Program-made: the position numbers and the translations under genes
The notes under the pieces: model-generated
What the model was told of the DNA's origin: nothing
Databases searched by the model: none
The model's input: the letters and a program-made list of their open reading frames with translations, nothing else
Shown here: positions 6,481 through 53,819 of the stretch, in pieces
Numbering within the stretch: the first letter of the stretch is position 1
How the letters are laid out: each line of letters opens with the position of its first letter
Source: Eukaryota sp. GEM-RC1
Lineage: Eukaryota
DNA: 64,000 bases
Direction of reading: 5' to 3'
Assembly: GCA_040285855.1 (NCBI GenBank)
Contig: JAUFOQ010000002.1
Coordinates: 1,860,001 to 1,924,000, forward strand

Positions 6481-7134
6481 TAAGAGAGAGGTGAAGTGAA
6501 GTGAAAATGGTTCTACTTAGTAGTTGAGTTCACTTCATTTTGAAGAACTCATTTAGAATCAATTTTAGCTCAGTACTTTTGGGTTTGCTACCATTAGTAG
6601 TGAGAGGCGTTCTGTACTACTCACAAAACCCTGAATAGTGACATATCCTCTCAGATTTTGACACTAATATTACTGTTTACTATTCGAGTAATTTGTACGT
6701 GAACATCAATTTAAGGCACATTTGTCATTTACAACCGAAATTATTTAATCAATCATTATTTATTTTCTGTTAATCTTTTGAAAATTTTAGGAAAATGATC
6801 ACTATTACAAGTATACACTCTATAAAATCGGATAAAATTGAGGTCATTCTGTATCACTAAATTGAAACCTAAAGATCTTCCACTTATTGAGCCTAGACGA
6901 AGCTGTCCCACACAATTGATCGAGGGACTAGTCAGAGAAAGGTTGTATGGTAAAGTTACATCTATATAATATGGGGAAATTTTGTAGAAACACTGTTTAG
7001 TCTGACAAACTACTGAAAATGTAAAAAAGGAATCAATTATATTGATAAAACTACATATGAAACAACGATCGTAAAGATCACAGAATTGGTTGAGTAAACC
7101 AAATAAAAATAGACTACTACTTGGATAACAATAA

Positions 7135-8383
7135 CTATGTCTTAGGAAAATTCAACAATTTGTGACAAACAAAGCATAAATGAAACCTGCTGTGGGCGCA
7201 ATGATTCAAACCAAGGTCATTAATGGTAATATTCTGCTTATTGTTCTTCTTTGTACCAATTGGACACGACAGTCGACAAGATTGAAAAGAGATTGACTTC
7301 AAATGAGTCATGGACGATTTCAAAGAAGCAATTTCCTGGAGATTAATTTGGGAATTTTCAAATGTTAGATGTAGAAGAAATTTAGGAAGACACGGAATTA
7401 AGGTAGTAATCCCAGTCACATTGTTTAAAGATAAAGACGATATGGACTCAGCAAAATAGGATAAACCGAAAGTTGATGGAATCGTGTTGGTGATCTGAGA
7501 ATATGATGTTGACAAGTCTGTACATGAAACGTCCTTGAAGTTGAGCATTAAATGATTCCTACGTAGAGTATTTTCTGGATTAATGCAAACGGAACCATGT
7601 ACACCAGTTTGACTGGAAATAAAGGAGGTTGTTAGAGAGTAAGTGCACGGAAACCGCAGAGATTCATCATCAATATCAACAACACACTGATTCAGATACA
7701 GAGAGTGAGAGAGGTAGACTCGAGGTATAAGAGAAGAAATGGTTTTCATGCAACAATCACAATGCATACGTGCAAGTTCCATGTCCAACTGTAAGATGGT
7801 CAATTGCTGCAAGGATGCTACTTCCTCAAGGAAATTGCATACTTTTTCATGAAGCTCTTTTGGATAGTCAAAAGCCAAATGCAAGTGTGTCAATTGCATA
7901 CGTTTTTCTTGTTTAAGGAAGATATCCAGGAAACCTACGGCAGAACCAACGAGTTTGACTTTCTGGGCATGGAAAGCAGAACAAGATTGCAACAATGGCA
8001 CTGACTTTAAGTCCAGTGTTATTGAGACAATGTTAGACAAATTAAAATCTTGGACTAGACGAAAATCCAGTCCAGAAGAAAGAACTCTGATTTGTTGAGA
8101 CATTGATGGCGAAAGTAGCGACAACAAGTTTAGAACATCAGAATCTAGAGCGTTAGTTGCAATAGGGAAAAAGCACAAAAAGCTTGTTCTGCAAGGTTGT
8201 ACAGGGCTTAATCTCCACCAAATCCACTTTTGATACTTGGTGAAGTGAGTTCATGGTGTGTTGGTGGATACCCCCCCATGTTATTGATACTAGACATGTT
8301 TTGAGAACAGTCGTGTATGTCATGAAGCGCAAACATTGGTTCAAACACAGTGTGTAGCGATCAATGATCTGGAATGATGACAT
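7135..8383 (-). pseudogene. Frameshifted copy of the LRR-like gene at 9186-10448
   Basis: Near-identical inverted copy, with a 23-bp deletion between TGCAAC microhomologies at about 8160. Confidence 0.8.
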
Positions 8384-9185
8384 GGTAGAAAGAAAATGTG
8401 AAATATTTTGAAATTTTCCAGTGTACTATCGAAATCCATTTTGCTGTCAGTCTCACATTGACGATTTCTTCAGACGTTTGTCCATTCATATTATTCTGCT
8501 GTAACATATACTATGGATGACAACAACGCGCAGAAGATCCATACATTTACGTACCAAGTGCATGTGTTAGGCATTACTAGGGAGTGGCAACCATTTACTG
8601 CAATACTCTTGCTACGTAATTTTGGACCGGAATAAACAATTGGTAGTGGTACAGTATATTTATGTATTTATATTAATGCCTTATATTGGACCAACAAAAT
8701 GAACAAAATCATTGATGCTCTAGGCTCTATAAGATGAGATTGAACTCACGATAATGAGACTAAAATGAAGGTGACACTATGGATAAATTAAAAGTGCATT
8801 AACAACATCCATCAAAGTGCCATAAGTGTCGATAAACTTCTAGTAAACTATAAACACTATAAAGGACAAACTAAAATTAAAAATCTCACTCAAAAGGGGC
8901 CAAATGCAACGTGAGTGCAACGCTCATTCCAAGTGTCTGAAATGGAATCACGGTTAAAATTGTGCCAATGCCTACGATATCTACGATATTACTAGTAAGT
9001 CACACTGTTCCCTGGATCAATTTTGAACAAAGACATCTTCAATCACGGAAAAATGTGAACACCAAATGGATGACAAACGATTCGTTAAAATCAGACGTCT
9101 TTCATAGAACATATTTGCAGCTCGCACAAAATGAAGTATTGTCAAAATTTCAAAATTTCAAAATATTTCACATTTTCTTTCTTCC

Positions 9186-10448
9186 ATGTCATCATTCCAG
9201 ATCATTGATCGCTACACACTGTGTTTGAACCAATGTTTCCGCTTCATGACATACACGACTGTTCTCAAAACATGTCTAGTATCCATAAAGGTCCACCAAC
9301 ACACCATGAACTCACTTCACCAAGTATCAAAAGTGGATTTGGTGGAGATTAAGCCCTGTACAACCTTGCAGAACAAGCTTCCCGTGCTTTTTCCCTATTG
9401 CAACCGCCTCCAAACGATTGATGCAACTAACGCTCTAGATTCTGATGTTCTAAACTTGTTGTTGCTACTTTCGCCATCAATGTCTCAACAAATCAGAGTT
9501 CTTTCTTCTGGACTGGATTTTCGTCTAGTCCAAGATTTTAATTTGTCTAACATTGTCTCAATAACATTGGACTTAAAGTCAGTGCCATTGTTGCAATCTT
9601 GTTCTGCTTTCCATGCCCAGAAAGTCAAACTCGTTGGTTCTGCCGTAGGTTTCCTGGATATCTTCCTTGAACAAGCAAAACGTATGCGATTGACACACTT
9701 GCATTTGACTTTTGACTATCCAAAAGAGCTTCATGAAAAAGTATGCAATTTCCTTGAGGAAGTGGCATCCTTGCAGCAATTGACCATCTTACAGTTGGAC
9801 ATGGAACTTGCACGTATGCATTGTGATTGTTGCATGAAAACCATTTCTTCTCTTATACCTCGAGTCTACCTCTCTCACTCTCTGTATCTGAATCAGTGTG
9901 TTGTTGATATTGATGATGAATCTCTGCGGTTTCCGTGCACTTACTCTCTAACAACCTCCTTTATTTCCAGTCAAACTGGTGTACATGGTTCCGTTTGCAT
10001 TAATCCAGAAAATACTCTACGTAGGAATCATTTAATGCTCAACTTCAAGGACGTTTCATGTACAGACTTGTCAACATCTTATTCTCAGATCACCAACACG
10101 ATTCCATCAACTTTCGGTTTATCCTATTTTGCTGAGTCCATATCGTCTTTATCTTTAAACAATGTGACTGGGATTACTACCTTAATTCCGTGTCTTCCTA
10201 AATTTCTTCTACATCTAACATTTGAAAATTCCCAAATTAATCTCCAGGAAATTGCTTCTTTGAAATCGTCCATGACTCATTTGAAGTCAATCTCTTTTCA
10301 ATCTTGTCGACTGTCGTGTCCAATTGGTACAAAGAAGAACAATAAGCAGAATATTACCATTAATGACCTTGGCCTGAATCATTGCACCCACAGCAGGTTT
10401 CATTTATGCTTTGTTTGTCGCAAGTTGTTGAATTTTCCTAAGAAATAG
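9186..10448 (+). CDS. Hypothetical 420-aa protein, weakly LRR/RNI-like
   Basis: Intact ORF with LxxLxL-type segments (LTHLHL, LTILQL, LSLNNVTGI, LKSISFQSC). Confidence 0.7.
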   Translation: MSSFQIIDRYTLCLNQCFRFMTYTTVLKTCLVSIKVHQHTMNSLHQVSKVDLVEIKPCTTLQNKLPVLFPYCNRLQTIDATNALDSDVLNLLLLLSPSMSQQIRVLSSGLDFRLVQDFNLSNIVSITLDLKSVPLLQSCSAFHAQKVKLVGSAVGFLDIFLEQAKRMRLTHLHLTFDYPKELHEKVCNFLEEVASLQQLTILQLDMELARMHCDCCMKTISSLIPRVYLSHSLYLNQCVVDIDDESLRFPCTYSLTTSFISSQTGVHGSVCINPENTLRRNHLMLNFKDVSCTDLSTSYSQITNTIPSTFGLSYFAESISSLSLNNVTGITTLIPCLPKFLLHLTFENSQINLQEIASLKSSMTHLKSISFQSCRLSCPIGTKKNNKQNITINDLGLNHCTHSRFHLCFVCRKLLNFPKK

Positions 10449-11202
10449 TTATTGTTATCCAAGTAGTCGTCTATTTTTGTTCATTTGGTTTTCTCAACCA
10501 ATTCTGTGATCTTTACGATCGTTGTTTCATATGTAGTTTTATAAATATATTTTTTTTTGGAAAATTTCTTTTTTACAGTAAGTTGTCATCCACGAACACT
10601 AAGTTTCAAACCAAGTAAACTATAGTAAGTTTTCGAAATGACCAACTGTAGATGGAACTTTACCACAAAATCCTTCTTGAGTACAGGGGTTCACCTCCTT
10701 ATTTGGGGAGAATTTCTCACATTCATAGATCAAAAGAACAGTAAAGAACAACACACATGTACTGAAAAGGTCAAACCATTGGAAAACAGAAATATCACAA
10801 AACTTCCATCACTCTAATTGACAACAAAGAATCAATTAATGACGAAAAAAACCACTCTAAGGAAATTTAAAGAAAAATAGTGTAAACAATATTTTATAAC
10901 CATACCTGAAACATTGACAAACTAGTTAAATACCCTATTTTAAGAACTGAAGAAAATAACGTGGGCAATTTGCTTACAATGTAAAAGTAGTGATTTTAAT
11001 ACACAAAAGACGAGTTAGACTCAGCCATTTAACAGGACAAATGGTCTCAAATACACTCAAAAAATTCTTTAATCGAAGAAGATCAAGTAAATGACTCGTC
11101 AAGAGATTCAGTTTGCAATAAAAGAAAACACAGCTCGAGAAACTGTAGCAAACGACTGTTCATATCCCGAAAGATCATTCAATTTTGAACTTGATAGAAA
11201 AT

Positions 11203-15096: not shown

Positions 15097-15803
15097 AAGA
15101 AGTCAGAAATGAAAAGAAGAAATCAATAATACTAAAAAAAACGAAAATAATAATACTAAATGATAATACTAAACGAATTAATCTATTTTAATCAATTGTG
15201 TTGTGAATTTGGCAAGAAGCTGAGTATTAGTTTTTGGAGGGATCGTCTTGTGTTTTCTATACTTCGTTCAATGTTTCCAGTATATCGATGGAATTTTGAA
15301 GAAACTCTATGGGGTTCAAGACCATGGAATGGTATTGTGAATTTTGTTTACGTCTTTAGACTTTATGTATTTTAAAGACAACAGATTTTTTTATAGTATG
15401 GATCTCGAATCAGGATAAAAGAAAGAAACCAATAAACCAATCTCAGCACAGCTCTCACTCAATCTTTATTTTCAAAGCAGAGCTGTTGTAATTGTCCTCT
15501 GACTGTTTGAATAGTTAGTTTTGACGAAGTGGAAGTTCTTGTCGTAAAAGTGTTTACTGCATGTTCATATTCATGTGCAGACTACTTATGGATCTTGTGC
15601 AAGTGTGCATATCCTTCAATAACTGTTCCGTATCGATATATAGACTTGGAGCATTTTAGTTGGCCGCTTAGTACAGTAACATTAATTGTTCGTTCTCTGT
15701 TTGTACTTTCTGGAAATTGTCTTGGTTGATTTGTTTGCTAGTTATTCTAGGTTCATATTTAGCTTCTTATGTCGTAGACCATGTTCGTTTGATTAATAAA
15801 TAA

Positions 15804-16447
15804 CAGTGTTGCGCCATTGTTTGCCATACACGTATGAACTCCCATACGTCCATACGCCCATACGCGTATGGCATTTTCTGTTTTGCCATACACATTTTGA
15901 CTACATGTATCTTTATTTGAACTTTTTCGATGCAGATACTCTAAGACGGGTTTTATCATAATGTAGATACATATACTTTATTGAAAACCAAACCTCCACA
16001 TCGTCCATCTCATTGGAAAAATTAGCACCATCAGGATACCATCTCTGCTTCCATTGCTTGATGTCTTTGATCTGAGTTTCATTGATTTGTATAGAAACCA
16101 TCTTTTGTGCGCTCCTTTATAAGTCTGTTTTTGTTTTTATCTCACTATTTTTGTTCTATAAAGTAAAAAAACTTCAAAAAGTCTGTTTCATCGTTTGTTG
16201 TGAATGAATGAGTACGTACTCAAACTCATTCACACGATTCTACAGAGCGTACTTGTTTTACTAATTTGATGACAAATTGCAGTGTAGGAGATGGTATTTA
16301 AACATAATGAAGTTAAGTGATGTTGGAAAGATTCTGCATATGGATAGATATGGCATGATGGCCATTGTCAGCCATTCTGCCATTCTACCATACGCCCATA
16401 CGCCCATACGCGTATGGCAAATTTATTTTGGTTATGGCGTAACACTG
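15804..16447. mobile_element. hAT-type MITE, family A
   Basis: TIR CAGTGTT(G/A)CGCCAT. 8-bp TSD ATAAATAA at 15796-15803 and 16448-16455. Subterminal CCATACG repeats. Second copy at 48251-48890. Confidence 0.93.
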
Positions 16448-16508
16448 ATAAATAACCCATTCATCAAGAAAAAATATGTAGACTTTGTGGTAATTTTCGG
16501 TTACCAAA

Positions 16509-18878: not shown

Positions 18879-19599
18879 TCATTTATAAGCAACATAAACT
18901 GTATGAAAAGATTCCAATGTCCACTGACTTTGATCATACCCACCATAAATTTCTATTCTACCGTAACCAGAACTCCTCAACCATCCTGCCACGTCATCCT
19001 TTTTACAGGGATACAGAGTCACAGAGTCTTGTTTCAGTATCTCCCCTTCAAGAGAAAGAGAAGTGGAGAAAGCAATAGAATCAGTTTTGTAAGAGTAGTG
19101 CCGGGAAAAAGACAGTTGTTTCCCTTCAAATGAACGTTGAATATCAGGAAGTTTGTCTGGTTTCTCAGCTAGGATTCTGTCATAATTAACTGTTGCAATG
19201 ACTAGACAGCTACCTGGATGAGTGACAATGTTGGTGTTTTTGATGAACTGATTTTGTTTGGATGATGGAACATGGGGAAGGGTATTACCAATGCAAATAA
19301 TGAGATCAAAAGTTCTGCCAGTGAATAGGGTGTCTATTTCTTCTAAAGAACCGAGACCAAGCTTGTAATCAGGAAGCAGAAGTGAACCCTGAACATGACG
19401 AATAAGGGCAGCGTCGTATTCTAACCCATATACATCAGCGTGTTCAGAAGCAAGAAATCGAAGCAAAGTTCCAGACCCAAAACCGACATCACAAATCTTT
19501 TTTATCACGAAAGTCTCCTACGATCGATCTTAGAAGAGACCTTTGGTGATCATTGATAGGGAAGATACATTCGAAATAGGGAATTAGTGAAGCGTACAT
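18879..19599 (-). CDS. Class I SAM-dependent methyltransferase, bacterial-like
   Basis: ICDVGFGSG, YGLEYD, FDLIICIGNTLPH and NYDRIL motifs. The N-terminus MYASLIPYFECIFP from ATG 19599 joins through a shift in a homopolymer at about 19500. Confidence 0.85.
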
Positions 19600-19782
19600 T
19601 GATTGCTACTAGTACAAGAAACCATGAGTAACTGGATATCTGGAAAAATCGACAATGATGCTCGTACAAATAGCTCAGTCAGCTGAGCCAACTCTCATAT
19701 CTAACAAACTTACTGTCATTTTTCAGTAAAACTAACACTATCTAATTATCGTTAATTGTTGTCAGTATACTGTATTTACTGT

Positions 19783-19929
19783 GAATTTCATTCCAAATGC
19801 ATAAGGGCATAACCCTTCACATTTTCATGATCTCATATAGAGCAAAACTCACAGTTTGAACAAATGTCTAAATTATTAGACAAATATCCTCATTCGCAAA
19901 GTCTTTTAAGACGAGCTAACTTCATAGAT
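19783..19929 (-). ncRNA. Candidate Fanzor omegaRNA scaffold
   Basis: Four hairpins lie just 3' of the stop codon, at 19901-19912, 19865-19882, 19840-19850 and 19803-19817. This is the position expected for TnpB/Fanzor omegaRNA. Confidence 0.55.
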
Positions 19930-22900
19930 TCAAGATTCCTGATCTTTCTGGTTTACGTGTGAGTCCTTGGGTACATCTTTCTTAGGCTTATTTGGACAAG
20001 TTGTTTTGTTATGTCCAGGTTGAAAACATATACCACACTTGTTAGGACCTCTGACAGTTGTTGGAGGACGTTTTGCTTTACCCTTACCCTTACTCACAGT
20101 CTTTTTCTTAGGAATCTGATCTGTATTCCCGCCATCCACGACAGGTTTTGTTTGAGATTTTGGTCTCTCGAGGATGGCAGGTCTACCTTGACCTTGAATG
20201 GTTCCATTTACAATATTGTAAATATTGATAGCAGAATTGAAGTCTCTATTCCAGAGGACATGACATTTAGCACATTCAACTAAGCCCCATGGTGAGACTT
20301 TGTTGTTCTTCAATCTTTCTTTCGAAAATGGCAACTGGTCAGTCCATTCTTCATCAAAGTTACGCTCCACAATATTGTCTAATTGATTGTGTTCCATAAT
20401 TTCCTTTTTTAATTCTTTCTCTTCCTTATGTAACTTCTTCTTCCAATGAGGATCAGTGACTTTTATCCTTTCAGGATTGGAGCAGATACCTTCGTTGTTT
20501 CTGGAAACACAAGCAGAGCAACATTTGCTGGTCTTAAATTCATCAACTAGGAACACTTTAAATCCAAATTTTCTCAATAATTTCCTAATTGAAGCACCTT
20601 TTACAGTAGATGCTTTACCTCTTCTTCGACGAAAAGCAGTGTCGTTCCAGTCTCCATACCCAACAACGACTTCATCTGGGTTTCCAAACTGGAGAGCAAA
20701 TCTGTGAAGCATGTTTTTCTCACTTCGTTCCTTTCTTGAATACTGTGTGAGACGATTCCTCCTAAACCACTTTTCTTCGTAAATTCCTTCTGTAGTTCTT
20801 TGATCAGTAGTGGGTGATCGTAGTAAAGAACAGGTAATTTCTTTACCAAGAACAAAAGCAGAATACAGAGTCAAATCACAAGATTTACTGCCTGGCGAGT
20901 TAGAGCCCCATTGATCTAAAATTTGTTGCCCATTTATGTCAATGCGTCTGCCATCTGGAATGTGAATAAATTGGGTAGAGTATTGTTGTAACCGTTCGGA
21001 TTCAGATAAACGGTGGAGATTGTATCGTCTTATTTTCTTCTCCAGCTTCCTCTTCTTTCTCTTAGCTCTTTTTCTTTCCTTCCTTGTTTTTTTCTTTTCC
21101 ATGGAGACTTTTTAATATCGGCATTGCGTTCCCCAGCAGTGTATCTGAATACTTTCCAATTATCACGATTTTTCAACTTGACAGTTGATGGTTTGTCAAT
21201 AGTAGGTGCGTCTTTCCAATCCTTCAATTCTTTTTTTAATTTTTTCAAGCTTCCTTTTTTCTTTGATGATTTTGGAGAAATCTTTCTTCTTCTGATTTTG
21301 GCTGATGTATCGAAACCTTCGATTTCCTTTTCCTCCTTAGATTTTAAAGAAGCACAATACATCAAATCATGCTGATTAGGATCAATCGCAACAATTCTTT
21401 TGGATTTCAAATTTAAGTTTTGAATTTCTGTGGAACTCAAAGAATCAATGTACCTTTCAGTAGCTGTGTAGTCAACAGCTTTCACCTTCTTATGAGGATT
21501 TCCTCTCCCATCAAGCAGATCTTTCCGCATCATCATTAAACTACAGCTAACTCCATCTGTAGAAATAGAACTGTATTTGAAGTCATGAGACAATGACTTT
21601 GGAAGAAACTTTGGTTTCAAAACTGAGTGCCAAATATCTTTTCGAACGTCATCAAAGCTACCTTTAATTTCTGATGCATGAACTTCTTTAAACCATGTAG
21701 TATCCAATCTGATATGATTAGGAATCAATGATTTTGTCAGAGGAAAAGGATTATTGGCAGTAACACCAGTACAAGAGTCCTCAACAAGACGTTTCAAATA
21801 CACTGCATGACTTAAGAATTTCAAAGGATCCACTTTTTCAGCATAATAGATTGTTTTTTCCATTTTACCTTCAAAAAAAGTAAACAAATAGTTAAAAAAT
21901 AGTAAACTCAGTCTAGAATTGGGATCAGGAAACACTTCAACATCTTGAAAATTAATTTTTGAAATTTCCCCATTAATGATCAACTGTCTGACTTCATTAA
22001 GCTTTGTACACAACTCTTGTCGTTGATTCTTATCACTAAGCTTGTTAAGTCTATCTTTTTCAGGGTAACCAAATTAAATACCTGAAAAACATATTCGTGA
22101 AAGTGTTCACTCATGTTAGTCTTGTAATTCGTTATAATTTCAGTAGCCATGTAATGCAATATACGAGATAAACGATGACTACTGGGAAACACAATCCTAT
22201 CAAGTCCAACGGAATCAGCAGCTAGTTCTAAACGAGGAATGTAATGCATCAAGAAATGTTGAGCAAACTGATTTTGAGTTGAGCCATCATTTGTGTTAGA
22301 AATTATGTTTGTTAACGATTCTTGTACAGTCCTAATATGATTCTGATTGTTTACAAGTTTGTAGTCCCTAATCGTCATCATAGACAACACTTGTTCCATT
22401 GATTTCAACGTAAAAAAATTCTTCCAGTCTGGCAATTCAATTTTGGAAGTTTGAATTTTAGTCCAAAGGTCAGGTTCAGGTTCACCACTCGCATCTTCAA
22501 TATTTTCTAATTTAACGGGAGGAGCAGTAGCATCGATAGACTCTGAATGTACATCTGTTTCTTCTTCAGTTGACTCATCTGTATCAGAATTCATTTCTTC
22601 CTTAACAGTTACATTTGGAACAGTAGCAGGCAGTAACTTCTGAATGTAACCTAAAATACCAGTATGTTGAAAATTATGAACAAAAAAATGTTTCAAAAAG
22701 AGAGTACTACGGACTCTTACTTGATGTGCTCTCTTAACACGAGATTCAATAAATTTAACCTTCGCTTTGGATACAACATTGTCTAGTCGTTTCTTAACCA
22801 CTTTCATTGGTGACTTTGAACGTAATGTTTGTTTTTTGGGATCCAATAGGTCAGCCAACAAGTATTCAATCAGAGGTAATTGTTGAATTGAGTTCATCAA

Positions 22901-25246
22901 CAATAGCGGTTTTGTCGATTCCTTGGCCCAAAGTTCATTTACTTTCTCCAAATTTCTTACAAATTTCTTTTTAATCTTATCGACCTTCACTTTAGGATTG
23001 TCTGGAACTAAAACATTAATACTGTCAATTATGCCATGCAAGTTTTGGACATTATTGACCAATTGAACTTCATCAGGATCAGAGTCATGATTAAGTTCTT
23101 CCAAGCGTTTGACAGTTTCATTTTTAGAAAAATTATTCATTTCAAGGAAAATGTGAACAACATTTTCCAAAAAACAACCACCAGTAAATACATAAAAATT
23201 CTTCAATACAGCATTCAAATCGAGGCTAAAAAAAGGACCAAAAGTTGTTTCCTTACACCATTTGTTGAACCAAAAGGGAATGTAGGGTTTAAATTCTGGA
23301 AAAGTAAACGTTGTATTGATTTTGAGGACTTGACAACGTGATACAAGAAAGGGAAATGTATCTAGAGTGAAAGTCATAACTCACAAACAATTGTGGACAA
23401 TGTTGAGTTATGAATGAAATGAAGTTTTTAAGCATACTGGATTCACTATCTGAAATATGTAAAGTACACAAATCCAAGTTTGAAGTATCAAAATTGCCAT
23501 GAGAAAATAAATGCTTTTCATTTAGCTCATTGTGATCAATGATCTGGATGGAAATTGATACAATCGGATCAACAGAAGAATCACGTTTAACTTCTAATTG
23601 ATCTTCAGCTTCACCTTCAACAGTTTCAATGTCATCATCATCTTCTTGAACAAGTTGAACATTTCTGCCATTAATTCTTTCTTTTTGGCAAAATCACTTT
23701 GAACATGAATTAAACAAAAAGTTGGTAGATTGTTCCAAAGTAGAGGGGATTTAAGAAAGTCTTGAATTTGTATTTCTTGTTCGATAGGCTCAGTGTGTAG
23801 ATTTACTTCCATATTAAGAATTTCTTCTTGAATTGGCGATGGATACGACATAATGGAGGCCTGTGATTTTGGTGGTAGTTCAGATGGAGGTAATTCAGAT
23901 GGTGATAGAGGTACTTCAGATGATTCCAATGTGGACATACGGCGGTGAGTCTTTCGTATTGGAGTGTCACCAGTTGAAACAAGGGAGCTGGTAGTTCTAA
24001 ATTTATTTTGTTGAATTAAAAGTGAACCTCGTGGTGATGGAATATCAGAAATTTTGGCTTTCCTTTTTTAGTGCTTAAACCAGTAGATGTTTTAGTGCTA
24101 GCAAGACGTGAACCTGTGAGAGGAATTGAAGTGGTTGGATGTTCTTTACCGGCAGGAGGTTGAATGGGTAACGATGGTACAATAGGAGCTACTGTGGTTT
24201 GACGTTGTTGTAGATAAAGTGTCCTTTGTTGAGACAAGACCTCCAGAATTTCTTCACGAAATATGTCTGCTTGAAAGAAAGAACTGTCCTTATCTAAACT
24301 CAACTGAGCCCGAAACCGTGCAATGGAGTCAGTCACAAGTTGAGTCAGATTAGGACAGAATGGCGGCATCATCGAAGCAACGGCAGTGGGGAAATCAACG
24401 GCAGTAGAGGGAGAAGCAACAGAAGTGGAGGCAGTGGAGGGAAAGAACTGTCCTTATCTAAACTCAACTGAGCCCGAAACCGTGCAATGGAGTCAGTCAC
24501 AAGTTGAGTCAGATTAGGACAGAATGGCGGCATCATCGAAGCAACGGCAGTGGGGAAATCAACGGCAGTAGAGGGAGAAGCAACAGAAGTGGAGGCAGTG
24601 GAGGGGAAAGAACTGTCCTTATCTAAACTCAACTGAGCCCGAAACCGTGCAATGGAGTCAGTCACAAGTTGAGTCAGATTAGGACAGAATGGCGGCATCA
24701 TCGAAGCAACGGCAGTGGGGAAATCAACGGCAGTAGAGGGAGAAGCAACAGAAGTGGAGGCAGTGGAGGGAAAGAACTGTCCTTATCTAAACTCAACTGA
24801 GCCCGAAACCGTGCAATGGAGTCAGTCACAAGTTGAGTCAGATTAGGACAGAATGGCGGCATCATCGAAGCAACGGCAGTGGGGAAATCAACGGCAGTAG
24901 AGGGAGAAGCAACAGAAGTGGAGGCAGTGGAGGGAAAGAACTGTCCTTATCTAAACTCAACTGAGCCCGAAACCGTGCAATGGAGTCAGTCACAAGTTGA
25001 GTCAGATTAGGACAGAATGGCGGCATCATCGAAGCAACGGCAGTGGGGAAATCAACGGCAGTAGAGGGAGAAGCAACAGAAGTGGAGGCAGTGGAGGGAA
25101 AGAACTGTCCTTATCTAAACTCAACTGAGCCCGAAACCGTGCAATGGAGTCAGTCACAAGTTGAGTCAGATTAGGACAGAATGGCGGCATCATCGAAATG
25201 TAGTTTTTTCGGATGTTTTCACTTCTTATTTTTGGACCCTTGCCAT
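19930..25246 (-). CDS. Fanzor RNA-guided endonuclease; about 1770 aa if the frameshifts are errors
   Basis: RuvC-I IVAIDPN (D at 21381-83), GYGDW, RuvC-II VDEFKTSKCCSAC (E at 20539-41), WGLVECAKC, RuvC-III WNRDFNSAINI (D at 20242-44). Upstream are FPLTKSLIPNHIRLDTT and STDGVSCS. The nuclease identity is strong; the full N-terminal extent is inferred. Confidence 0.9.
24277..25197. repeat. Tandem array of about 5.6 copies of a 164/165-bp unit
   Basis: TGGCGGCATCATCGAA recurs at 24361, 24525, 24690, 24854, 25018 and 25182. Units look identical apart from GGG versus GGGG. Confidence 0.97.
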
Positions 25247-25575
25247 TGAAAATTGAATTCGCGTCATTTATTTTGAAGAAATCTATCCAAAGTTGTTAAT
25301 TGAAGAAAGATGCGTTTGGAAATTGAATTCGAGTGTTATAAATTGTACATTGTAGTATAACTTATGAATATTTCAAATTATTGATTAAAATAACAATGAG
25401 GGACTTAAGTCAATTATTTTTGATTGACTGAGTGATATAGAAATAATCTCACAGCACACATGGCCTTGAAATTAAAAGGAAAATATTCGTTTCAAATATT
25501 TCGAAAAGAAAGTGCAACAAGAACTAACCAGAATAAAACTACCATTAAGAACAACATTCGTCTCAAGAACAACCA

Positions 25576-26355
25576 TTAAACTGCTGACGTGTTTACTTCC
25601 ATACTAGAACTACGAGCACAAGAACTACAAGGATCTTCATCACAGATGGAATCCCACCGCGTTAACCATTTATTAACCCTACAAAGACATTTAGGATCAG
25701 TATCTGCCACGTGGATATGGAAATCAAAACTGGTAAAGTCAAAGCTGTTGCTAGAATCTGTTGTCATTGGATAGTAAAAGCAGAAATACACTGACAAATC
25801 ACGGAGAGTCATAGCCAAAGAGTACATCCTTGCAAGTTGACTAAACTCCGACTGTGATTCAGAATCAAGCCAATCATTAAGACCAATATCACCCATTAGA
25901 TTGTGAAGATCTTCCAATGAGGGCTCTTGATTGGCAAAATAATCACGAAACGAGAGAATTCCGACTTGATCTAGTTTCGATTGCAACGAGGCCAGTCGTT
26001 GAAAGAACTCCTGGGATCTACTAAAGAGACTGTAAAGAAGAGAGTGTTGTTGGGGTCTAGTGAAAGAAAGGGAGTGTGAAGGGTGGCCGTTGATGAAGAA
26101 CTTTAGGTTGTTTCTGGGATGGTTTAATAAGTCGGATATAGCGGAATCTAAATGGGATATATTGCTCAGTTTGAGAGGGCAAAAGTGGGTTTCAGAATTG
26201 TGGAGAAGACAGAAAAAACACGATGAAGTGTTGTTTTCAGGAGATACAGAAAGCCATTTTGGTTTGACTTCGACACAATAGCGATGGTAGAGTGGATTCA
26301 GAGGTAAATTCAAGTTATTGTCAACGTGAAGAAGGACTTCAGATGATGTGATCAT
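25576..26355 (-). CDS. Inositol-pentakisphosphate 2-kinase (IPK1)-like, apparently 5'-truncated
   Basis: CVEVKPKW, CFFC, FCPL, PRNNLKFF, MTLRDLS and VADTDPK motifs. No N-terminal GEG loop seen. Confidence 0.75.
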   Translation of the reverse strand: MITSSEVLLHVDNNLNLPLNPLYHRYCVEVKPKWLSVSPENNTSSCFFCLLHNSETHFCPLKLSNISHLDSAISDLLNHPRNNLKFFINGHPSHSLSFTRPQQHSLLYSLFSRSQEFFQRLASLQSKLDQVGILSFRDYFANQEPSLEDLHNLMGDIGLNDWLDSESQSEFSQLARMYSLAMTLRDLSVYFCFYYPMTTDSSNSFDFTSFDFHIHVADTDPKCLCRVNKWLTRWDSICDEDPCSSCARSSSMEVNTSAV

Positions 26356-26437
26356 TGAAGATACAGTTGGAGGTATGTTTAAGCATCATTGACAACAAAC
26401 CAGATCTGAAGTAAATGGGTCAAAAGGCAAAATTATT

Positions 26438-28316
26438 GATTTCTCTGAAAGTTCACATTTCATTAGAGTTTGACTATAATCTTGACAAAAATGACTGTGC
26501 TCTTGACAAAACTGACTAGAATCTTGACAGCTTCTCTTTTTGCTAGAATCTTGACAGAACGGACTAGATTCTTGACAAGTTGCTTTCTGATCCATTTCAG
26601 TGATATCTTCATTTCTTCGTCACTGCTTCATTGTCTCCCTCTTTATGTTCTGTAACTGGGAGCTTCTGCTTTCGTTATCACATATACTTTAGTAGTTCAA
26701 ATTCTACAGTTCACTATTGCTCTAGTGCTCACAATCACAATCTTTCTTGAATTTCTTACATCTTTGACAATGACTTCTGCTATCATGTCCTTCCTGGCGA
26801 CACACTCTACATTTCCTTGCGGTTTTCTTCTTTTGAGTTCTCATCACTCTACCATTCTCCTCATGAACTTTTGGACCTTCGTATCGATGGGCATATCTTG
26901 CTAAACCCACATTGGCAGCCTCTTCTAACCGTACCTTGTCTGCAGCTGACTCAGTAGACCGCCATTGATTGAACAGTTCTTCAACAGGATTAGAAATTTG
27001 ACCTGATTCTTCTTCATCATCTAACCACCACTGTCGATGAAACATATCTTTGGAAAATCTTTGTGTACTTTTAATGCTGTGAATACATGGAATTCCAGTT
27101 ATTCTCTCAGTTCTACCTGAATATACTGAATCCACATGATTCGTTTGGCTAAAAGCAATAATTTGTAAAACCTTCAACAAAGCAAAAGATGACACGTGTC
27201 GAATTACGTTCACAAATAAAGGGGTGTTGATCAGTTCTCGGTCGACTCTCTGCTTATCAACATCAATATTTCTTCTTAAGTCGATTACTTGATGCTCCAT
27301 AGTAGCCATAACATTTTCCATAGCACTCTCCAAGTCTCTTTTGTACATTCGATCTCCGGATTTTAGTGCATTGTGGGCGGACTCGGCTCGATTGTTCGTG
27401 TAAGTTTCAAAGTGAGTGAATTGGTCAATATTGTAATAACAGAAACTTTCCTTCATATCGAACCAATTGTTAATTAAATAGATGAAGGCATCACCACATT
27501 CTCGGTCATTTTCATATTTGCCTGTCATCACGTCCGAATTCCAACAAAATTCTTCGACTGCTTCACTTTGAATTACGGAGTAAAAATGTTCCATAAATAT
27601 TTTCCATGCTGGATCAGAAATTCCTTTAGCGTTCTTAATTTGGATTAAATTTTGAACGATATGGAACAAGCATAAAACGTGACCGGATGTAGGAAACACT
27701 TTCCTGACAGCATTAATCAATGCCTTTTCTTTATCTGTAAGAAAAACTCCTTGATTAATGTTAAATACATCTTTAAATTGTTCCAGAGTCCAAAGGTAGT
27801 ATTCTTCAGTTTCTTTCGCCATAAAGACACATGCAGCACGGAACGATGAATTTAAACAAGTAAAACCAACCACATGAAACATTGGCATACCAAAAGTATT
27901 TGTCTTATAAGTACTGTCAAGACAGAACACATACCGAAATCTTCTGGCAATCGACAGTACCTCCCGGTTTACAATAAACAGGGCTTCAAGTCGGTTTTCG
28001 GCATCAGACTTAACTCGAAAGATGTACCCGTCCGCGTTTTTTCACCTTTATCACCGGCCCAATTTTGCAGAGAGTTAACAGCATCTTCATAGGATTCAAA
28101 GGACATCAAATTATTTGGAACTGGTGTTGTTGGATTGATTGTAGGGTCCTCCTCATTTAAGACGATGTTTTGATTTAAGCTCATATTTATGAATAATAAA
28201 GAGAGATATTTGAGGGGAAGTGAAAAAGAAGTTGTCAAGATTTTAGTCAATTCTGTCAAGATTATAGCAAAAGTGATTTCATTAATGTAAGATTCGGGAG
28301 GGACGAAGAACCAATC
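26438..28316 (-). mobile_element. Mutator-like element (MULE)
   Basis: 9-bp TSD AAAATTATT at 26429-26437 and 28317-28325. Termini GATT...AATC. Inverted subterminal (A)TCTTGACA repeats at 26479-26578 and 28234-28262. Confidence 0.92.
26722..28184 (-). CDS. MULE (FAR1-type) DDE transposase
   Basis: LDSTYKTN, LTDKEKAL, LCLFHI, TNNRAESAH, GIPCIH and a C-terminal CRVCRQEGHDSRSHC. ATG 28184 joins with +1 A at about 28040. Confidence 0.93.
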
Positions 28317-30156: not shown

Positions 30157-30372
30157 TGACAGTTGTTGAAATAGGTTTTGCTGAATATAAGAAATCGGAA
30201 CGCGAACAGTAAACAAGATTAACTGATCAGAGCTGAAGATTCCTGTTGGTCTAGGGTAGATCGGGCAGCTCAATACCATTGTGTGATAAAGAGCTGTGGC
30301 AGTAAAGATCCTCCATCAAAACGTTGTAAAAGAAAACAAATTTCAGATTTTTTTTGAACAGACTTCACTAGT
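30157..30372. repeat. Inverted copy of the 649-860 dispersed repeat
   Basis: Direct sequence comparison. Confidence 0.85.
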
Positions 30373-30461
30373 GCTTCCACTAGCACTAGTGATATCAGGT
30401 TCCTTTCCTATGTTGATTTTACCATTGGAAAACTTTTTACCCCTAGCCTAGGCGCGCCTCT

Positions 30462-48208: not shown

Positions 48209-48250
48209 GGCTGGATACCACTTTCAAGTTCCTGGGAAATGTCATTTTTT

Positions 48251-48890
48251 CAGTGTTGCGCCATAATTGAAAATAAATTTGCCATACGCGTATGGGCGTA
48301 TGGACGTATGGTAGAATGGCAGAATGGCTGACAATGGCCATCAAGCCATTTCTAGCAGAATCTTTCCAACATCACTTAACTTCATTATGTTTAAATACCA
48401 TCTCCTACACTGCAATTTGTCATCAAATTAGTAGAACAAGTATGCTCTGTAGAATCGAGTGAAAGAGTTTGAGTACGTATTCTTTCATTCACAACAAACG
48501 ATGAAACAGACTTTTTTCACTTTGTAGAACTAATTTTAAAAAAAAAAGTGAGATAAGAACAAAAACAGACTTATAAAGGAACGCACAAAAACTGGATTCT
48601 ATACACATCAATGGAACTCAGATCAAAGACATCCAGCAATGGAAGCAGAGATGGTATCCTGATGGTGATAATTTTTCCAATGAGATGGATGATGTGGAGG
48701 TTTGGTTTTCAATAAAGTATATTTATCTACATAATTATAAACACGTCACAGAGTCTCTGTGTCGAAGAAGTTTCAAATACAGATACATGTAGTCAAAATG
48801 CGTATGGCAAAAACAGAAAATGCCATACGCGTATGGGCGTATGGACGTATGGGAGTCCATACGTGTATGGCAAACAATGGCGCAACACTG
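48251..48890. mobile_element. hAT-type MITE, family A (inverted copy of 15804-16447)
   Basis: TIR CAGTGTTGCGCCAT. 8-bp TSD CATTTTTT at 48243-48250 and 48891-48898. Confidence 0.95.
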
Positions 48891-48905
48891 CATTTTTTAG
48901 GCATC

Positions 48906-51278: not shown

Positions 51279-53819
51279 ATGTTCAGTCCTGATAATCCTG
51301 TTCGTAGAGGTAACATTGGTCGCGGTGCCCGTGGTGCCAGTCGAGGACGTGGTCGTCGCTTAGGACTTAGAGGCCGTGGTGGTGGTGGTCCTCGTGATGT
51401 TGGCGTATGTTTCTTTGACTGATTCTTACAACAGTTTACCTATTTGCAAGATCAACTTGCAAGAAAAAATGTTGGTGAAACTCAACTTCTGACTAATTGT
51501 CACCAAATTCATGTATCTGATCAACCTCTTTGGGTTTATGCTCCTTCTTTTCCCGCTACCGTTACTGATGATCTTTTCCGTAGACGAATGGTGACCGAAA
51601 TGTGGGAAACGGCTTTTGGTAGCAAACATCAGATCCCATTTGGTGAGATCGTGTTTGTTTCGAATCTGATCTACACGTTGAAGCCCATTGAACAATTTCA
51701 CGATACCTCTTATGATGTTCGACACCACAACTCCCGTTTCAACATGGAAGTTACTTTTATCCGTCAAATCACAAACCGAACTCCCACAAGTATTGATGAA
51801 TCACAGCTCAATGAACAACTACATTCTTATTTGTTGCAATTAGCTCTCAGAAAATCGGACTTGGTTCATTTCCACTCCAACTACTATGACCGTGAACCCC
51901 GTACTCATGAACTTTCAGATGAGTTTGATATCTTACCCGCATGGGTACCCCGTTTGTTGTGGCGTTCTTCTGGTTGGATTCTAGAAGTCCATACTTATAA
52001 CAAGGTATTGTGCAAAATCAACATGCTTGATTCCCTTAAACAACGGAAAGCTCACTTCCAAGGACCTGAAGAACAAATCCACAATCAATTGCATGAAGAG
52101 GTAAAATGGGGAGTGTATTGGCTGTCTCACAGTCACAAGTTTGTTACGTTGGGCGGTATAGATTGGACTAAGACACCGTCATCAACCTTTGACAATAATG
52201 GAACTACTACTTCATTTGCTTCTTACTTCCAACAAGTATACAACGTACATCTCGAACCCAACCAACCTCTTGCTTATCGTTGGATCGGATATAGAGAAGA
52301 GTACGCTTACTACCCTATTCAAATTTTAAAAAAATCTGGAAACTTTTCTGAACCCCTACTTGAGATCATCAATCAACTCACCCAAACCAAGCCTGGCGAA
52401 ACTGTTCAGAGAATCAGAGAATTCTTTGAAGTAATGACCAAGCAGGTGTCTCAAAACAATCGTGCTCCAACCTCTCCCATGGATTTCTTGAAGAACTGGG
52501 GAATTCAGTTACCTAGTAACGCAGAACAGTCCTCTATTGTAGTTGACACCATTGCCCTCAAGCCATTCACCATTGATATTGGCTCAGAACGTTTCCCTTC
52601 TTCTGATGGATTCTTTGCACCCAAGTTAAGGAATATTCAGATTCCAAATCCTCAGCCTATCAACAATTGGGTCTATGTTTATCATGATGCTACAGAGGCT
52701 TTTGCTTTGAAGATGCTTGATTTTATCAAAAGTCGTATGGAACAATTGAAGATTAATGCTGGAGATCCTTTGGTTATCCTTGTACCTGGAAGAAACAGAT
52801 TCGACCAGCCCTTAGACAATGCTCTTGAGGGTAAAGCTCCTCCTCAGTTTGTCTTTGCTTGTGCCATTGACCAGGACAAGACCACTTATGATTTGTTTAA
52901 GAATTATTGCACCACTCGTGGAATTGTTTCACAGTACTTTGCTGAGTCTGAAGTTAAATCTAAACCTCAAGCTGTTATTGGATCTAACCTTGTTCTTCAA
53001 GCGCAGGCAAAACTTGGTGCCACTCTCTGGAATGTCGAACTTCCTCCTAAAGTTTTTGGTCCCAATGGATCCTTCCCCACTTTGATTCTGGGTATGGAGG
53101 TGTATTATGGTAAGCATACTGCTTCTTGTTTGGCTCTTGTAGGCATGTTTGTGTTCCACAACAAACTTTCTTGGTTCTCCAAAACTAAGGAATTGCCTCC
53201 TACTCAAGAAGTCTCTCAACTTGTTACTCCGTTGGTTGCGGAATGCCTCCAGCACTTCAATTCTATTAATGCTCCTGAACCCCGAACAGTGATAATCTAC
53301 AGAGATGGAGTTGATGAATATCAGTTTAACTTGGTACGAAGTCTAGAGCTTGAACCCGTCAAGCAAACCATTAAGGCGACTCACCACGAAGCTTGTATTG
53401 TCTTTAACATTGTCCAAAAGGGAGTCAACACAAAGTTCTTCTCTCCTAATACTAGAGATCTCAACCTGAGTGCTGGAACTGTTATCAGCTCTACTGTCAC
53501 CAGGGATCAGTCACTGTTTGGTCACGATTACTTTATACAATCTGGCATGACTGAAGTTGGAACCTCAAGTCCAGTTCATATTAATGTTCTTTACAATGAT
53601 CTTCCTCCTGAAGCTGGTGTCCAACCTTCTGATTTATATGATGTGACTTACTCTTTATCACATATGTACTACAACCAGGGTTTTGCCATTGATGTTCCTT
53701 GTGTTTGTCGCTATTCTCGTCGTTTGGCTGTTTTTATGTGTGAACACACCATTTCTACTGCCGAAACTCCTCTGATGCCTGTTCCAAGTCTGTTATTGGA
53801 CAAGCTTTATTATATCTAG
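51279..53819 (+). CDS. Argonaute family protein, PIWI-like; intron 51405-51434 (30 nt)
   Basis: RG-rich exon 1 (GRGARGASRGRGRR). PAZ region TPSSTF...SFASYFQQVY...QPL. MID region YDLFK...SQ and AKLG. PIWI region IIYRDGV, VQK and LSHMYYN...VPC. Confidence 0.93.

Follow-up and report, generated by a model that had tools for sequence, protein, structure and literature searches.

The DNA directly downstream of a Fanzor1 stop codon in the 64-kb window (the whole stretch of DNA that was analysed) probably encodes a Fanzor1 omegaRNA scaffold whose boundary with the guide lies at 19778-19777. This reading, which draws on the predicted fold and on the analysis of distant loci, is assigned a probability of roughly 0.6. 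When all readings with an omegaRNA are added together, the locus is very likely that of a Fanzor1 omegaRNA. The scaffold would span 19895-19778 on the minus strand and would comprise a 7-bp first stem-loop (SL1) and a three-way junction, the closing helix of which would mark the element end.

The Fanzor1 gene and its locus

The gene and its right flank are organized as follows.

19930, minus strand: Fanzor1 stop codon, with the candidate omegaRNA region directly 3' of it
19930..23380, minus strand: C-terminal half of an exonuclease domain, then Fanzor1 (REC/WED/RuvC/TNB) with a tail that bears a CCHC knuckle, divided among three frames (23380-21980, 22013-21030 and 21102-19930)
18879..19599, minus strand: host methyltransferase gene of the right flank, the start codon of which bounds the element

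The ORF piece upstream of the RNA region matches PF07282. The profile derived from alignment A1 matches only the three solved Fanzor1 proteins, SpuFz1, PpFz1 and GtFz1, with E values of 6.8e-52 to 2.9e-31; where Fanzor1 is to be told from Fanzor2, TnpB and Cas12f, it matches none but the Fanzor1 structures at E ≤ 0.01. Judged by its sequence, the gene upstream of the RNA region is a Fanzor1. The RuvC catalytic D/E/D residues are present (D in VAIDPN, E in LVDEFK and D in NRDFN), as is a C4 zinc finger, with the catalytic glutamate located directly before the finger (LVDEFKTSKCC) and WNRDFN as the third motif. The catalytic triad is kept across Fanzor families of 40-95% identity.

Near-identical proteins in NCBI are labelled Eukaryota sp. 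GEM-RC1, and more distant ones TZLM1-RC and TZLM3-RCL. Annotated pieces under the same organism label cluster as 26 and 14 (pieces, not copies), and the equivalent stop codon is the end of 13 fetched proteins, the window's own counted as one. By these sequence counts, the Fanzor1 family in GEM-RC1 is multi-copy, young and abundant. According to the available part of the preprint (bioRxiv 10.1101/2023.05.03.539051), GEM-RC is a free-living soda-lake metamonad (Skoliomonas) and its assembly was obtained from Nanopore R9.4 reads with Illumina correction.

No second copy of the Fanzor element was found within the window. The search for close relatives in metagenome and viral scans returned proteins of only ~23-36% identity, with one short segment at 56%; a viral scan with P0028 gave no match, nor did the 21-nt pattern in prokaryote genomes. 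None of the fetched proteins reads into 19929-19600, where the single opposite-strand match is at chance level. With P0053 as the query, the ESM Atlas gave leads only, at 0.75-0.76, and these were to viral clusters of stand-alone Fanzor1; the single-sequence structure prediction of P0228 yielded a pLDDT of 34.

The related Fanzor pieces P0021/P0042 and P0003/P0025 have locus tags two apart, which suggests clustered, nested or tandem insertion. In P0201, a Fanzor N-terminal piece is fused to a host-like sequence with TPRs; the element has probably inserted into a gene here, or the gene model is an artefact.

Predicted fold downstream of the stop codon

The preliminary description of this DNA listed four stem-loop strings on the minus strand close to the stop codon. 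All four are present, and are given here together with the predicted fold.

19912-19901, minus strand: hairpin 1, GUCU-UAAA-AGAC (GUCU/AGAC, 4 bp), marginal, and may lie 5' of the mature RNA
19882-19865, minus strand: hairpin 2, UGUCUAA-UAAU-UUAGACA
19850-19840, minus strand: hairpin 3, GAGU-UUU-GCUC
19817-19803, minus strand: hairpin 4, AAGGG-UUAUG-CCCUU
19889-19858, minus strand: predicted SL1, a 7-bp stem UGUCUAA/UUAGACA (19882-19865) lengthened by GGAUA/UGUUC
19855-19778, minus strand: predicted three-way junction (SL2), from pair probabilities, with z −3.95 for 19860-19778

The segment 19929-19760 folds at −46.4 kcal/mol (z −4.30), and none of 200 shuffles was as good. As structures, hairpins 2 and 4 are firm, with pair probabilities of 0.90-1.00 and 0.96-1.00, respectively, within this segment. 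Hairpin 1 is marginal, its pair probability being 0.61-0.71 there and 0.3 in the fold of 20200-19760. Hairpin 3 is not supported as a structure: its pair probability is 0.00 (0.04 when the RNA is cut at 19783) and its bases are predicted to be taken by a 10-12-bp helix with 19778-19789, in which its 5' arm pairs with 19778-19787 at p 0.9-1.0. Consequently, the first five bases (ACAGU) of the guide that had been proposed to start at 19782 (ACAGUAAAUAC) sit inside a predicted scaffold helix. This closing helix of SL2 joins 19855-19844 with 19789-19778 (12 possible pairs, of which 10 have p ≥ 0.9) and encloses a weak hairpin at 19842-19832 and a long stem at 19829-19789 that has hairpin 4 as its cap. 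Two unpaired A residues separate it from the predicted SL1, which we infer to be 19882-19865 by comparison with known Fanzor1 omegaRNAs.

Significant folding is seen over 19929-19778 (z −4.5), whereas 19782-19660 does not reach significance (z −0.95). Among non-overlapping 150-nt tiles of the minus strand, 18 of 426 reach z < −3.5, in a noisy scan of 10 shuffles per tile whose tiling split the omegaRNA region, so that the region is absent from the 18; a z of −4.3 is therefore uncommon but not unique in the window. An SL1 and closing-helix layout is found in 4 of 1502 170-nt windows, with the omegaRNA region among the four, by a layout test that was written after the fold was known. Rfam returned no significant family match (best E 4.1).

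Boundary in distant Fanzor1 loci and predicted start of the guide

The collection of 131 distant loci includes 123 with the C-terminal motif, 100 with a recognisable right end and 72 that are distinct. A length and redundancy filter was passed by 33 loci, 24 of which were aligned; the other nine, which looked long or irregular, were set aside by eye. SL1 and the closing helix covary in the 24 aligned loci, with two-sided changes in 10 of 15 pairs and none of 500 shuffles as good, counts that are inflated by the kinship of the sequences and refer to a structure derived from the same alignment. In this register 95% of positions are paired, compared with 27-49% in slid registers. Directly past the last pair of the closing helix, column identity falls from 1.0 to 0.42, and in 65 of 70 distant loci the base that lies three from the end of the element has a pair probability above 0.5. 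A covariance model built from the distant Fanzor1 omegaRNAs (R1) failed to match 19760-19929, even with E values of up to 10 admitted; the loci of the model are only ~30% identical in protein to the window's Fanzor1. The predicted SL1 loop is UAAU here and of the UCG type in the distant loci.

Inverted repeats with TA ends occur in 23 of the 52 distant loci examined (L019-L127). In these, a T directly precedes the left TA in all 23 and another T lies one position further out in 21, flank bases that by sequence point to a TTTA-type target motif.

The last pair of the predicted closing helix in the window is A19855-U19778. Since the closing helix ends at the boundary in the distant loci, 19777 is, by analogy, the most likely first base of the guide (19776 should TA be a duplication), and not 19782; T19778-A19777 could represent a TA duplication kept in the scaffold.

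19760..19777, minus strand: predicted guide, ~15 nt from 19777 or 19776 (AAAUACAGUAUACUG...), presumably flanking host DNA, as judged from the distant loci and the literature

The available parts of the published work describe a similar arrangement. The SpuFz1 omegaRNA consists of a 75-nt scaffold from the stop codon to the right end plus 14-15 variable nt (PMC10432273). The three solved Fanzor1 omegaRNAs share a 7-bp SL1, the remainder is variable with little constraint beyond SL1, and the closing stem adjoins the guide (PMC11423790). By eye, the second stem of the SpuFz1 RNA (Table S3 of PMC11423790) stops one base before the variable part, and a review assigns the 3' duplication to the scaffold (PMC13565253). 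In the fold of a longer transcript, the predicted guide of the window pairs in a downstream hairpin (19772-19724, p 0.7-0.9).

The motif ACAGTA occurs twice at the predicted end (19782 and 19773), with a 9-nt period (19773-19782 and 19763-19772), and the repeat overlaps a perfect palindrome, CAGTATACTG. Loci L014 and L020 likewise have right ends that are duplicated.

Candidate element ends and flanking DNA

25240..25460, minus strand: region with candidate left ends (25454 and 25330)

With the right end taken as 19779 and 26400-24200 searched, the best partner is the candidate left end at 25454 (CTGTGA), which matches at 14 of 20 positions, the outer six exactly; it is suggestive only, on sequence likeness. 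The imperfect inverted repeat of 19783 with 25330-25310, which we assume to be the basis on which the element end had earlier been called at 19783, was rejected as no better than shuffles (p 0.33). The search that was positive in 23 of 52 distant loci detected no significant inverted repeats at the window element, and no target-site duplication is visible at 25454 or 25330; the mariner-type combination of terminal inverted repeats and TA duplication is thus not seen here. As for Helitron2-type ends, which would have asymmetric terminal repeats, 5' and 3' hairpins and a T-rich target, the outer ends have no 20-nt match, and repeats of 8-15 nt are indistinguishable from chance in a single copy.

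The predicted guide has matches only at the 3-mismatch level in the 64-kb window, none in a plausible context, and the right-flank methyltransferase has no second annotated copy at E ≤ 1e-20 among proteins of 114-366 residues; no empty site is therefore in evidence. The inositol-pentakisphosphate 2-kinase on the left (25576-26385, minus strand) has a 96% identical paralogue elsewhere, P0017, the first 72 residues of which are missing from the window's kinase and absent from the window. This paralogue was rejected as an empty paralogous site because that search found no paralogue of the methyltransferase and the window kinase lacks those residues.

A weak direct resemblance of 25501-25350 (minus strand) to the omegaRNA region has a shuffle p of 0.02-0.03 and is probably due to chance. 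The segment ranks in the top three of ~657 in three of four scorings, tied with unrelated AT-rich segments; its own fold has a z of −0.4 to −2, and no shared structure emerged in a two-sequence fold with the omegaRNA region. Folded alone, 25460-25355 forms a similar three-way junction (z −0.4). Possibly, 25350-25501 is a decayed second copy.

Other repeats are present in the window. A MULE transposon (26465-28283, minus strand) has a PF10551 match, a C-terminal CCHC knuckle and long imperfect inverted repeats; TAATGAAAT at both of its ends looks like its 9-bp duplication, and this transposon could be unrelated to the Fanzor element. An inverted duplication of 1.4 kb and 96% identity (7038-10549) and two pairs of dispersed repeats (15794-16452 with 48246-48899, and 647-861 with 30158-30373) are probably other mobile elements. 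A PAZ-Piwi (Argonaute-family) gene is located at 51444-53819 on the plus strand; the host is therefore likely to possess small-RNA silencing able to act on Fanzor elements.

Polyprotein organization and state of the window copy

Upstream of the frames described above, the window copy contains two further parts.

23289..24276, minus strand: a linker followed by the N-terminal half of a PolB-type 3'-5' exonuclease domain (PF03104) that is degenerate, in three frames (E 6.6e-07 for 23693-23289)
24277..25197, minus strand: a 164/165-nt repeat, present 5.6 times, with homology to the repeats at the N-terminus of fuller copies

In other copies, annotated pieces that overlap add up to a single frame comprising tandem repeats, a 2A-like motif, Ulp1, a PolB-type exonuclease, Fanzor1 and a zinc knuckle. 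P0198 and P0213 contain the Ulp1 protease and the PolB-type exonuclease, P0228 extends from the exonuclease through RuvC-I, and P0028 from RuvC-I to the zinc knuckle. In P0047 (1426 residues) and P0053 (1473 residues), one protein carries the exonuclease and Fanzor together with the 2A-like motif; neither has a Ulp1 match. No transposase domain was found in the polyprotein pieces. In the window, the uninterrupted frame 23380-21980 joins the second half of the exonuclease to the Fanzor N-terminal lobe. At 24277 the repeat passes straight into the linker, and the 2A and Ulp1 parts (~240 codons) are therefore missing from the window copy. The 2A-like motif was called from what we take to be its consensus; release by 2A occurs at NPG/P, according to the available text of PMC5009743.

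An exonuclease profile found no match in fetched proteins outside the GEM-RC1 and TZLM labels, only P0053 among 148 new representatives, and none in the 131 distant Fanzor1 loci. With the ExoI/II/III motifs assigned by what we presume to be their usual form, the acidic motifs look intact in the TZLM3-RCL-labelled P0047 (SFDVET, YNCDKFD and YCLND) and degenerate in the GEM-RC1-labelled copies (P0213 and P0228), short of what marks an active exonuclease.

The window copy has five frame breaks, four of them at A-runs, in addition to the deletion. Six other pieces share the break near 22050, four lack the one near 21100, and a comparable frame break is present in the neighbouring host gene. Sequencing error is the likely source of the breaks in the window copy.

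A conserved hairpin within the ORF

20186-20123, minus strand: in-ORF hairpin just after RuvC-III, with the codons for RPAIL paired with those for VDGG (10-bp core; z about −5)

The in-ORF hairpin pairs codons in register. This register predicts the amino-acid pairs that other families can have. Across families, the amino-acid pairs at its central position are I/D, V/D, V/N, I/N and A/S, all of which can be encoded by codons that are exact reverse complements, compared with 13% of all pairs. Among 15,099 three-codon registers this one takes first place, with 10 of 11 pairs compatible, and it contains the only column pair with five distinct compatible pairs out of 9,363 with at least four. This ranking was based on six sequences chosen as family representatives and left out the TZLM3-RCL-labelled proteins, which by eye do not fit the register. 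In several distant loci a hairpin at the RP codons appears, by eye, to be separate from and upstream of SL1, which lies 7-111 nt downstream of the RP codons in 67 distant loci. The 190 nt between the in-ORF hairpin and the omegaRNA region have no significant structure. The in-ORF hairpin is a probable precursor or processing element, and could be the start of a long omegaRNA.

Alternative readings

The right end may have been placed too close to the stop codon. An element and RNA extending to 19768, 19724 or ~19670, of a Helitron2-like or other type without inverted repeats and with the guide further out, would take in the hairpin at 19772-19724 and a GC-rich hairpin at 19689-19672. We consider this unlikely. 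The ACAGTA repeat, the lack of significant inverted repeats and a host coding sequence that starts only at 19599 agree with it, and Fanzor1 is known from non-autonomous Helitron2 with a 3' hairpin (available text of PMC3627910). However, 19782-19660 folds no better than shuffles, and the ends 19724 and 19670 have no 20-nt match (≤7 mismatches) in 26400-24200. Little credence at all can be given to the end at 19783 of the preliminary description, for which the helix to 19778 would be an accidental pairing of the guide with the scaffold. The imperfect inverted repeat does stop exactly at 19783, where it matches 25330-25310, and 19929-19783 alone folds at z −3.7. That repeat is nevertheless at chance level, the predicted helix crosses 19783, and by simple arithmetic five Watson-Crick pairs would extend a helix into random flank about once in 500-1000 cases. 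Such pairing would also mask the guide seed, and the helix of the distant loci stops at the boundary.

The length of the mature RNA and its very existence can also be questioned. An omegaRNA of ~430 nt that begins at the in-ORF hairpin, with 19760-19929 as its 3' domain only, seems improbable to us even though this hairpin, by its first rank among the registers, has the strongest cross-family support. SpuFz1 was improved by a 275-nt 5' extension, and overlap with the ORF end is described for GtFz1 and ApmFNuc in the available parts of PMC10432273 and PMC10530073, respectively. In contrast, the solved Fanzor1 omegaRNAs measure 75-150 nt (PMC11423790, as far as available), and the position of the RP-codon hairpin relative to SL1 in the distant loci and the lack of significant structure in the 190 nt also count against this reading. 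It is highly improbable that the element is decaying and makes no omegaRNA, its folds being signals of the DNA ends or a structure of the 3' untranslated part. The failure of model R1 to match, the deletion and broken frames of the window copy, and the other strongly folding tiles in the window are compatible with this idea. It is opposed by the catalytic triad, intact across the families, and by the RNA from the equivalent position that was carried by four RNP-sequenced Fanzors (PMC10530073) and SpuFz1 (PMC10432273), in the portions of these papers available. With a scaffold ending at 19778 as the preferred reading, the omegaRNA that the preliminary description placed downstream of the Fanzor stop codon is partly supported, by the Fanzor1 gene, the position and the predicted layout, whereas its hairpin 3, element end and guide start are not supported.

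Proposed mechanism and implications

The element transcript would run through the right end, and an RNA of ~135 nt would be cut from the 3' end of this transcript, possibly at or after the conserved in-ORF hairpin. The omegaRNA would be loaded, in cis or in trans, by Fanzor1 made from a fuller copy or, should the frame breaks of the window copy be errors of the assembly, from the window copy itself. By analogy to TnpB, the complex would cut where an AT-rich motif of the left flank abuts a match to the guide, at a site that the element has left or has never occupied. Repair templated by the occupied chromatid would then bring the element back by gene conversion. Such restoration is established for TnpB and proposed for Fanzor (available text of the review PMC13565253).

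A broader reading is conceivable, though we hold it to be doubtful. In a skoliomonad Fanzor1 lineage, a single polyprotein would combine 2A, Ulp1, PolB exonuclease, nuclease and zinc knuckle, the omegaRNA would be cut from the same message at the in-ORF hairpin, and the exonuclease would resect the guided break, so that the element could copy itself by RNA-guided homing without its own transposase.

Taken alone, the omegaRNA would be a further predicted Fanzor1 guide; its eukaryotic group is one on which the search found no Fanzor paper. The corrected boundary is needed for any cleavage test, as five bases move the whole seed. The system as a whole is more unusual. In it an RNA-guided nuclease is naturally fused to two further enzymes, an exonuclease of the proofreading type and a protease of the SUMO type, which bears on the role of Fanzor in vivo and on the spread of elements that lack a transposase. 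The question is directly testable, as the free-living protist is in culture and has dozens of young copies.

Comparison with known systems

The omegaRNA is of the expected kind, and the polyprotein element that carries it is a variant for which no description was found in the literature searched. A literature search, mostly of papers open without subscription, found none on Fanzor in Skoliomonas or metamonads. For Fanzor with Ulp1, an exonuclease fusion or a polyprotein, the titles found (including PMC6338049 and PMC13434818) seem not to describe this fusion. The main texts of PMC10432273, PMC10530073 and PMC10711439, as far as available, do not mention an exonuclease or metamonads; their supplements could list such proteins.

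Spu-1 of Spizellomyces punctatus, which encodes SpuFz1, resembles the window element in the available parts of PMC10432273 and PMC3627910: it carries a Fanzor1, no transposase is seen in the element, a structured RNA is placed after the stop codon and before the right end, recent copies are many, and a predicted closing stem is followed by TA and then by the guide. According to the same sources, Spu-1 is 2.1 kb long, its inverted repeats are clear and span 30 nt, and its scaffold measures 75 nt, whereas the window element is ~5.5 kb long, with inverted repeats that are not significant, a predicted scaffold of ~115-120 nt and a Fanzor1 that is part of a polyprotein. The GtFz1 and PpFz1 omegaRNAs, as described in the available text of PMC11423790, share with the window RNA the 7-bp first stem-loop and variability beyond it, and the 150-nt GtFz1 RNA is also alike in having several stem-loops and overlapping the ORF end. 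By eye they have no sequence likeness to the window RNA, and no N-terminal protease or exonuclease is mentioned in that text.

Elements such as CRe-1/2/3 (CrFNuc, non-autonomous Helitron2) and the unclassified MCi-2 are similar to the window element in carrying a Fanzor1 without ordinary inverted repeats and in having variable 5' parts and a conserved 3' end; unlike the window family, no 2A-Ulp1-exonuclease fusion is reported for their proteins in the available parts of PMC3627910 and PMC10530073. The mariner-type Fanzor1 loci of giant viruses and metagenomes (L001-L131) have ~30% protein identity to the window Fanzor1. We take these loci to be of the PGv-1 type, a label that comes only in part from PMC3627910. 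They differ from the window element in their TA-ended inverted repeats (23 of 52), in the UCG-type SL1 loop and in the absence of the exonuclease (0 of 131), and are alike in the predicted RNA, which comprises SL1 and then a closing helix around a small hairpin and a long stem, ending at the boundary.
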